NCBI GenBank assembly: GCA_014896375.1
Contig: JADBKN010000009.1
Location: forward strand, 75,088 to 139,087
Length of the DNA stretch: 64,000 nt
Direction of reading: 5' to 3'
Origin: Bacillota bacterium
GTDB lineage: Bacteria > Bacillota > Sulfobacillia > RBS10-35 > Bu92
Below the pieces are notes generated by a model that saw only the letters and a list, made by a program, of their open reading frames with translations, was not told the origin of the DNA and did not search any database. The position numbers were made by a program, and so were the translations under genes. Positions 53,283 to 54,215 of the stretch are shown piece by piece; position 1 is the stretch's first letter, and every line of letters begins with the position of its first letter.

Positions 53283-53831
53283 GCCTACGTATTACCGCGG
53301 CTGCTGGCACGTAGTTAGCCGGGGCTTCCTCTTGAGGTACCGTCACCCCCGGGGCATTGCCTCCCCGGGTCTTCGTCCCCCAAGACAGAGCTTTACAGCC
53401 CGAAGGCCTTCATCGCTCACGCGGCGTCGCTGGATCAGGGTTTCCCCCATTGTCCAAGATTCCCGACTGCTGCCTCCCGTAGGAGTCTGGGCCGTGTCTC
53501 AGTCCCAGTGTGGCCGGCCACCCTCTCAGGCCGGCTAGCCATCGTCGCCTTGGTGGGCCATTACCCCACCAACCAGCTAATGGCCCGCGGGCCCATCCGC
53601 CAACGAAGGCTTCCGCCTCCTTTACATCCTGCGGCCGCAGCCGCCGATGCCCATCCGGTATTAGCCGCGGTTTCCCGCGGTTATCCCCGATTGGCGGGTA
53701 GGTTACCCACGTGTTACTCACCCGTCCGCCGCTGGGTCCGCCGGTGAGCTAGGCTCACCCACGAACCCCGCTCGACTTGCATGTCTTAGGCGCGCCGCCA
53801 GCGTTCGTCCTGAGCCAGGATCAAACTCTCC
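53283..53831 (-). rRNA. rrs: 16S rRNA gene fragment: the 5' ~550 nt only. Identity with 16S ends abruptly after the GTGCCAGCAGCCGCGGTAATACGTAGG block.
   Basis: The reverse complement carries AGAGTTTGATCCTGGCTCAG (27F site, 53812-53831), ACTCCTACGGGAGGCAGCAG (338-357 region) and GTGCCAGCAGCCGCGGTAATAC (515-536 region). Sequence to the left of 53283 no longer matches 16S. Confidence 0.85.
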
Positions 53832-54002
53832 GTAAGATCCAAAGAGCCTGTCCGGCTCCTCTGACTTCTCTCTCACCCGCTGCCGCCCCAGCCTTCGCCG
53901 GTCCGGCAACGGTTCAAGGGCCGCCTCGCTCTCTCACGCTGTTCAGTTTTCAAGGATCGGGTCGTCTTCCGCCGGAGCCGTCCGGCGTCCGGCGGTTTTA
54001 AA

Positions 54003-54031
54003 TCTTATCATCGGCCGCGGCGCGGGTCAAT
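54003..54031 (-). promoter_or_regulatory. rRNA operon sigma-A promoter (TTGACC-N17-TAAGAT), ~170 nt upstream of the 16S 5' end
   Basis: On the minus strand: TTGACC (54031..54026), a 17-nt spacer, TAAGAT (54008..54003). Lies between lysS and the 16S start, matching the B. subtilis lysS-rrn arrangement. Confidence 0.55.
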
Positions 54032-54215
54032 CGCACCTTCTGCCATCGGTGCGCGTTTCGCGCCGCGCACCCGCGGCTGCGGCTCTCGCCGCCGTCCGCG
54101 TCAGGCCAATATAGCACCGCGACGTCGGCGCCCGCAAGCGCACAATTTCCGGCTGCGCTGCCAGCCGCCAGCAGGCCGCCGCGCGCGCGTGCCGGCGCGC
54201 ACTGCACGCCGCGGC

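Follow-up and report, generated by a model that had tools for sequence, protein, structure and literature searches.

A 16S rRNA gene fragment next to lysS

On the minus strand of the window, by which we mean the whole 64-kb stretch of DNA analyzed here, a lysS gene is followed by an rrn promoter region and leader, by the 5′ part of a 16S rRNA gene and then, past an abrupt break, by remnants of protein-coding genes. The lysS open reading frame (54216-55793, minus strand) lies directly upstream of the rrn promoter region and encodes a lysine-tRNA ligase that is 100% identical to MBE3589707.1, "MAG: lysine--tRNA ligase [Firmicutes bacterium]", from a 178,599-nt contig. The nearest named relatives of this protein are found in Thermaerobacter (65% identity) and in MAGs of the Limnochordales and Limnochordia (61%). 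At the 3′ end of lysS (54219-54294), a 21-nt unit occurs three times in tandem and encodes a C-terminal tail rich in Gly and Asp (...ETDGDGATGDGDGATVDGDGAAGDGEG). LysS of the window has 525 amino acids, versus 499 in a relative with 91% identity.

The promoter and the conserved leader that precede the 16S gene of an rrn operon are both represented here, the promoter by prediction and the leader by alignment to the DNA of a related species. This species was sampled in one project (MAG GCA_019683875.1, runs SRR12718344 and SRR12718354), and three of its contigs, L083, L084 and L085, are used below. A consensus scan recovered a sigma-70-like, promoter-like site, P2 (54002-54030, minus strand), with the arrangement TTGACC-17-TAAGAT and a TG before the −10 element, some 166 nt before the 16S gene begins. 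No other such site was recovered in 52400-54400, where shuffled sequences would be expected to yield 0.1, and the elements TTGACCC and GATA(A/T)GAT of P2 are kept in L083. Direct reading points to a possible further promoter, P1 (54108-54137, minus strand), with the arrangement TTGCGG-18-TATATT and again a TG before the −10 element. It was missed by the consensus scan, the −35 element matching at only three of the six positions; its −10 block, GGTGCTATA, is conserved in both L083 and L085. P1 and P2 together would be the tandem layout that is typical of rrn operons. Between P2 and the 16S 5′ end, the leader (53837-54001, minus strand) aligns with the DNA downstream of lysS in L083 at 79% identity over 204 nt, and the alignment includes an identical block of 51 nt.

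With Rfam, one rRNA match was obtained in the 64-kb window, to SSU_rRNA_bacteria (RF00177) at 53273-53828 on the minus strand, which covers model positions 9-546 of 1533 with 445 bits and an E value of 4e-138. With the sequence cut off at the break, the match runs from 53836 to 53284 (minus strand, 553 nt), covers model positions 1-531 and scores 476.5 bits; the gathering score of the family, 50, is exceeded in both cases. A full-length gene would span model positions 1-1533 and comprise the 5′, central, 3′ major and 3′ minor domains. The window holds model positions 1-531 only, from the 5′ end of the gene to about E. coli position 541, with the break lying within helix 18. The last bases with similarity to 16S are ...GGTAATACGTAGG, and the minus-strand text over the break reads ...GTGCCAGCAGCCGCGGTAATACGTAGG on the 16S side and CGCCCTCGGTCGAGG beyond it, where the intact 16S genes of five other Bacillota have ACGTAGG(T/G)GGC(G/A)AGCGTTGTCC. 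Because intact Bacillota 16S genes continue differently past the break, the final 16S base is placed at 53284, which by our own count we take to be roughly E. coli position 541, in the 3′ strand of helix 18. The first non-rRNA base is 53283, and the step from 53284 to 53283 is referred to below as junction A. At this point the universal 515-541 block ends, and the next position varies between taxa.

The fragment spans nearly the whole 16S 5′ domain, and its base pairing is intact. Helices internal to it are paired, and most of the mismatches that Rfam marks are at bases that would pair with sequence past the break. Two intact genes reach 528-530 bits when scored over these model positions, compared with the 476.5 bits of the fragment, and much of this gap can be attributed to longer V1 and V3 hairpins. 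At columns that are invariant among the other sequences, the window has 16 private changes, versus 14, 11 and 10 in other divergent sequences. Neither the score comparison nor the count of private substitutions detected decay of the 16S fragment, in contrast to the phnE remnant described below.

In a complete rrn operon, 23S and 5S genes, often with spacer tRNA genes, would lie downstream on the same strand. No 23S, no 5S and no further piece of 16S was found in the 64-kb window at the Rfam gathering thresholds, nor any further rRNA piece in 52400-53320 at E≤10. ARAGORN found no tRNA gene in the whole window (1-64000). The first-pass annotation of this DNA had described a 16S 5′ region on the minus strand cut at about nt 540, a TTGACC-N17-TAAGAT promoter about 170 nt upstream of it (P2, at 54030-54002), and the loss of the 16S 3′ part, the 23S and the 5S after the break; each of these is reproduced by the Rfam searches of the window and the promoter scan. 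The same annotation had allowed for the case that the 16S sequence simply continues past about 53283, and this did not hold against the clipped Rfam match and the comparison with intact genes.

Dead genes beyond the break

All of the remnants past the break lie on the same strand as the 16S fragment. The first 176 nt (53108-53283, minus strand) have no recognizable match: at E≤10 there is no meaningful Rfam match, and in no reading frame is there a match to Pfam or NCBIfam. The stretch possibly combines an intergenic spacer with the 3′ end of the gene ahead of phnE. One of its frames reads ...PSVEAATDDVLPRSG..., in which "...ATDDVL.R..G" loosely resembles the C-termini of PhnC proteins at a level that is not significant, and a phnC gene may have left its last trace here.

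It is followed by a phnE pseudogene (about 52605-53107, minus strand) that corresponds to the N-terminal 60% or so of a phosphonate ABC permease and is disrupted by at least four frameshifts and by in-frame stops. The uncorrected frame matches TIGR01097 at positions 71-109 (E 3e-4, 20.3 bits), and a frameshift-corrected conceptual translation matches positions 14-152 of 252 (71.3 bits, E 8.4e-20). An intact PhnE would reach the curated cut-off of 216.7 bits over the 252 positions of the model, so that what is left here is a pseudogene remnant. The GC signal by codon position, as read from the third position, switches phase along the remnant. The lengths of neighboring genes are the same as in the relatives: the DAO protein has 386 amino acids, the ABC ATPase 268, GreA 160 and the Shikimate_DH-like protein 367. 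Because these genes match the relatives' lengths exactly, the phnE frameshifts are not a general sequence error, and the base-level quality outside the remnant is good. Elsewhere in the window, a suspected frameshift in gerA (36161-37726) was rejected, both Pfam segments being in one frame.

At 52595-52605, which we call junction B, the phnE remnant runs directly into glxK, entering that gene at about codon 57. Nucleotide homology to contig L084 of the related species begins at window position 52604, equivalent to L084 position 7135, which is 168 nt inside the L084 glxK gene. Junction B (phnE′/′glxK) is a clean breakpoint; it lies 680 nt from junction A. The 5′-truncated glycerate kinase gene (51642-52586, minus strand) has lost its first ~57 codons. 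Its open reading frame of 314 amino acids matches Pfam Gly_kinase (PF02595) at positions 58-366 of 372 and TIGR00045 at positions 63-371 of 375, with scores above the cut-off in both cases (278.8 and 227.4 bits, respectively). It falls short of a full-length glycerate kinase, which in the closest relative (P0242) has 379 amino acids. In NCBI, the truncated GlxK is recorded as an ordinary protein, MBE3589706.1 (314 amino acids, 100% identical), and not as a pseudogene; this accession and that of LysS are consecutive and belong to one MAG contig. The "decayed non-rRNA sequence" of the first-pass annotation can be refined to a frameshifted phnE pseudogene followed by a 5′-truncated glxK. No terminator or 3′ processing signal was found at the break itself. 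Two weak terminator-like hairpins are present 240-340 nt beyond it, which is no more than shuffled sequences give.

The window as a whole has a GC content of 72%, and its strand organization changes close to these remnants. Between position 1 and 51.6 kb, the plus strand carries 36 of the roughly 41 open reading frames that are confidently coding, and the GC skew is +0.028, whereas from glxK rightwards the genes are mostly on the minus strand and the skew is about 0. The switch in polarity and skew falls near ~51,600, at the convergent glxK/DAO pair. In L084, the genes on either side of glxK are on one strand. A replication terminus at the polarity switch was considered, and a search for a dif-like site at up to three mismatches found none to support it, which is a weak negative.

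The locus in a related species and in other Bacillota

The lysS-side contigs of the related species are collinear with window positions 54352-63997 at 82% identity, and its glxK-side contig, L084, is collinear with 45783-52604 at 80% identity; the collinear alignments are 9.7 and 6.8 kb long, respectively. In L084 the glxK gene is full length (379 amino acids), and upstream of it are genes encoding PBP5, a UPF0182 protein, an Asn/Asp-tRNA ligase (AsnS) and a RodZ-like protein, none of which is present in the window. By comparison with these two loci, the placement of glxK next to lysS-rrn is a derived state, which belongs to the window's contig. The lysS contigs of the related species end 356 nt (L083) and 208 nt (L085) past lysS, in the rrn promoter and leader region, and contig ends at an rrn leader are the usual signature of a multi-copy rrn operon in short-read assembly. 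The MAG contig L083 ends at its position 11856, 26 nt short of the 16S start, and L085 (Logan SRR12718344, k=31) ends at 11708, directly after the −35 element of P2. These end points suggest that the rrn copies of the related species are identical from the −10 region onward.

In B. subtilis, lysS is followed by rrnJ and rrnW. Among the loci that we fetched with LysS, full-length 16S genes follow lysS on long contigs of four Bacillota lineages (L010, L016, L022 and L060). Three of them (L010, L016 and L022) have 16S positions 1-1533, 23S positions 1-2925 and a complete 5S, two of these with tRNA genes. In the Bacillota loci that were compared, the 16S 5′ end is located 150-600 nt past lysS and on the same strand. 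Because other Bacillota have complete operons at this site, and because the related species' contigs break at the leader, the rrn operon is ancestral at the lysS site; the lysS-rrn arrangement recognized in the first-pass annotation is likewise supported by the lysS and 16S loci of other Bacillota. No second 16S fragment of the kind found in the window was seen in the related loci compared.

How such loci usually appear in draft assemblies is illustrated by the 18 lysS loci with a 16S match. In 12 of them the contig ends within the first ~200 nt of the 16S gene. A thirteenth, L038 from Sporomusa sp. KB1, has a scaffold gap of 100 Ns at 12112-12211. There the Ns stand for the sequence from about nt 200 of the 16S gene through most of the 23S gene, as is classic for a collapsed rrn operon. 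In contrast to these ordinary outcomes, the contig of the window neither ends early in 16S nor has an N gap.

The strain represented by the window recurs in an independent run, SRR24392716, in which two Logan contigs are 100% identical to it, L081 to 55169-56782 and L082 to 50213-51707. These contigs are about 1.5 kb each, one per flank, and both are located away from the junction. The protein searches returned no 100%-identical partial LysS or GlxK products, which suggests that coverage in SRR24392716 is patchy.

A severed rrn operon or a misjoined contig

The anatomy of the locus, its two breakpoints and the break in synteny relative to the related species can be read directly from the data. 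We put at about one half the probability that a rearrangement has severed the rrn operon linked to lysS and left the 16S fragment as a real remnant of it, beside older dead genes. What would have survived is the promoter or promoters, the leader and the 16S gene from nt 1 to about 541. The rearrangement would have cut the 16S gene within helix 18 and joined the fragment to an existing gene graveyard, consisting of the 176 nt, the frameshifted phnE and the glxK that lacks its first ~57 codons. Because the 16S fragment and the leader show no detectable decay, the cut would be young relative to the decay of phnE. An inversion of which one end fell within the 16S gene is the best fit, given the nearby change in polarity and GC skew; the 16S 3′ part, the 23S and the 5S would then be situated at the other end of the inversion, outside the window. 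A large deletion would be the alternative to an inversion. We infer the type and age of the rearrangement, as well as the fidelity of the contig to the chromosome and the transcription of the fragment.

RNA made from the fragment would have neither a central nor a 3′ domain; helix 3 would be missing its 3′ strand, and the leader processing stem its 3′ partner. Because those parts are missing, the transcript would, by general rRNA biology, be incapable of maturing into a 30S subunit. At most, a non-functional transcript would run from the rrn promoter into phnE′ and glxK, and the organism would need at least one intact rrn operon elsewhere.

That the DNA past the break consists of same-strand remnants of real genes supports a real scar, and junction B, an independent second scar 680 nt away, favors real scarring at this site. 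Both flanks have the same high-GC3 codon usage, a similar divergence from the relatives (80% and 82%) and fully identical contigs in SRR24392716, and partial 16S genes have precedents in finished genomes (PMC3457768). Against a real remnant is the source of the sequence, which is a MAG contig. The undecayed state of the 16S fragment and its leader would be explained equally well by a misjoin onto a functional operon.

There is a substantial chance, somewhat short of even, that the join at 53283/53284 is instead an artifact of MAG assembly. One form of this explanation is mis-threading through an rrn repeat of about 740 nt that comprises the leader and the 16S 5′ part. In that form lysS really leads into an intact rrn operon, the assembler took the wrong exit from the repeat, and a real 16S remnant adjoins phnE′ but has another upstream flank. 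In the other form, the join is chimeric or a local misassembly without read support. Assemblers occasionally emit consensus sequence that no read supports, and local assembly errors and rare chimeras are documented for MAGs (Chen et al. 2020, PMC7111523). Several features of the window are in keeping with an artifact: its origin from a metagenome-assembled contig; a 16S piece that is indistinguishable from that of a functional gene; a break at the end of the 515-541 block before a variable base, where assembly graphs of multiple species tend to branch; and the switch in strand polarity and GC skew near the join. The last of these is not decisive, since a random misjoin would bring it about in half of all cases. 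Similar contigs from short reads break off at the 16S gene or shortly after entering it, and threading through some 740 nt of repeat is unusual.

The searches, moreover, gave no independent sequence across the junction. Exact-product look-ups of open reading frames spanning or near it (80 amino acids on the minus strand, 246 amino acids on the plus strand, and a further two of 73 and 92 amino acids), and of guessed partial products at contig edges, retrieved no recorded protein. A homologue search with the 246-amino acid frame returned only spurious open reading frames from the 16S genes of other organisms, with query coverages of 34-57% and identities that did not exceed 80%. In JGI metagenome contigs there were zero matches to a 28-mer over the junction and likewise to a 32-mer from the V3 hairpin.

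Other features are harder to reconcile with an artifact. The window has no Ns and no 23S or 5S tail of the kind left by an ordinary collapsed rrn gap, and a collapsed rrn scaffold gap like that of the Sporomusa locus was rejected on these grounds. K-mer assemblers normally need the k-mers of a junction to be present in the reads, so that under De Bruijn assembly the phnE region should really be adjoined by at least a short piece derived from 16S. The phnE′/′glxK scar at such a short distance would be a coincidence, and the two sides share their composition, their divergence from the relatives and their occurrence in SRR24392716. The first-pass annotation had offered an assembly junction and a real rearrangement as its two options without choosing between them; we hold the rearrangement to be marginally the more probable, and the simple collapsed-repeat version of the assembly junction is disfavored by the lack of Ns and of a 23S/5S tail. 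As to how a join might have arisen within the window, no repeat elsewhere in it shares the junction beyond the length of chance matches, and a repeat- or microhomology-mediated join inside the window was rejected.

It is highly improbable that the fragment has been kept for a function, whether as a 5′-domain RNA that titrates ribosomal proteins or regulates rrn, or as one half of a split 16S whose second half is transcribed at another locus. The promoter or promoters and the leader are intact and show partial conservation with the related species, the identical 51-nt block included; the fragment also covers nearly the whole 5′ domain with its pairing preserved. A recent truncation or an artifact would be expected to leave just as much conservation, and the leader of the related species appears to belong to a normal multi-copy rrn operon, at which contigs break. 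Related loci offer no second fragment of this kind, the neighbors here are dead genes, and at the break there is no 3′ processing or terminator signal, the two hairpins further on being at chance level. To our knowledge, a split bacterial 16S rRNA gene would be unprecedented. A maintained, transcribed RNA (for example a decoy for 5′-domain assembly proteins), or a 16S split by inversion with both halves in use, is likewise highly improbable.

The chance is just as slight that the 16S gene is interrupted at about 541 by a mobile element, an intron or a large insert, with its remainder further on. Homing elements typically target conserved rRNA sites, and neither terminal inverted repeats nor a target duplication was seen at this one. 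The search of the whole window, with its 53 kb downstream of the break, found no 16S 3′ part, 23S or 5S, which essentially refutes an interruption by inserts of up to 53 kb, and what follows the break is the remnants of phnE and glxK and then a conserved syntenic block. Transposon-interrupted rRNA genes are, for their part, known (PMC3457768).

Significance and comparison with known truncations

Under either of the two main readings, the truncation is of a known and minor kind, truncated 16S genes being already documented in finished genomes, and the understanding of rRNA biology is unchanged by either outcome. If the severed operon is real, it is one more case of an rrn operon left as a promoter-bearing stub. 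It would also be the mark of a recent rearrangement, perhaps the inversion of a large segment, in a high-GC Bacillota lineage that is uncultured. That a strong rrn promoter reads into dead genes would be a small curiosity; the practical consequences weigh more. If the join is an artifact, the 178.6-kb contig is chimeric at 53.28 kb of the window and should be split. The 553-nt stub could pass for the 16S gene of the MAG in taxonomy or in estimates of copy number.

Among the closest points of comparison are the lysS-rrn loci of other Bacillota (L010, L016, L022 and L060), which resemble the window in having lysS and then 16S on the same strand, with one or more promoters in the spacer. The difference is that L010, L016 and L022 carry a complete 16S-23S-5S operon, whereas the window has model positions 1-531 alone. 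The rRNA-associated breaks of draft and metagenome assemblies (Chen et al. 2020, PMC7111523) are similar in that the anomaly falls in a multi-copy, conserved gene, at the edge of a universal block. They usually show as an N gap or as a contig that ends early in 16S, within its first ~200 nt, but the window runs without Ns into unrelated, internally scarred DNA.

Partial and deleted 16S genes in finished genomes are described in a passage of Lim, Furuta and Kobayashi 2012 that cites Pei et al. 2010 (PMC3457768). The cases given there include an operon deletion in Protochlamydia amoebophila UWE25, a partial 16S gene in Bacillus amyloliquefaciens FZB42 and a partial 16S gene on a plasmid of Lactococcus lactis SK11. 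What they share with the window is an rrn copy that lacks much of its 16S gene, lost by deletion, substitution or inversion, and a remnant that is still rRNA-like, with other copies presumably functional. They come from closed genomes of isolates, in which the other copies can be compared, whereas the fragment described here is carried by a MAG and has a chain of protein-gene remnants as its 3′ partner.
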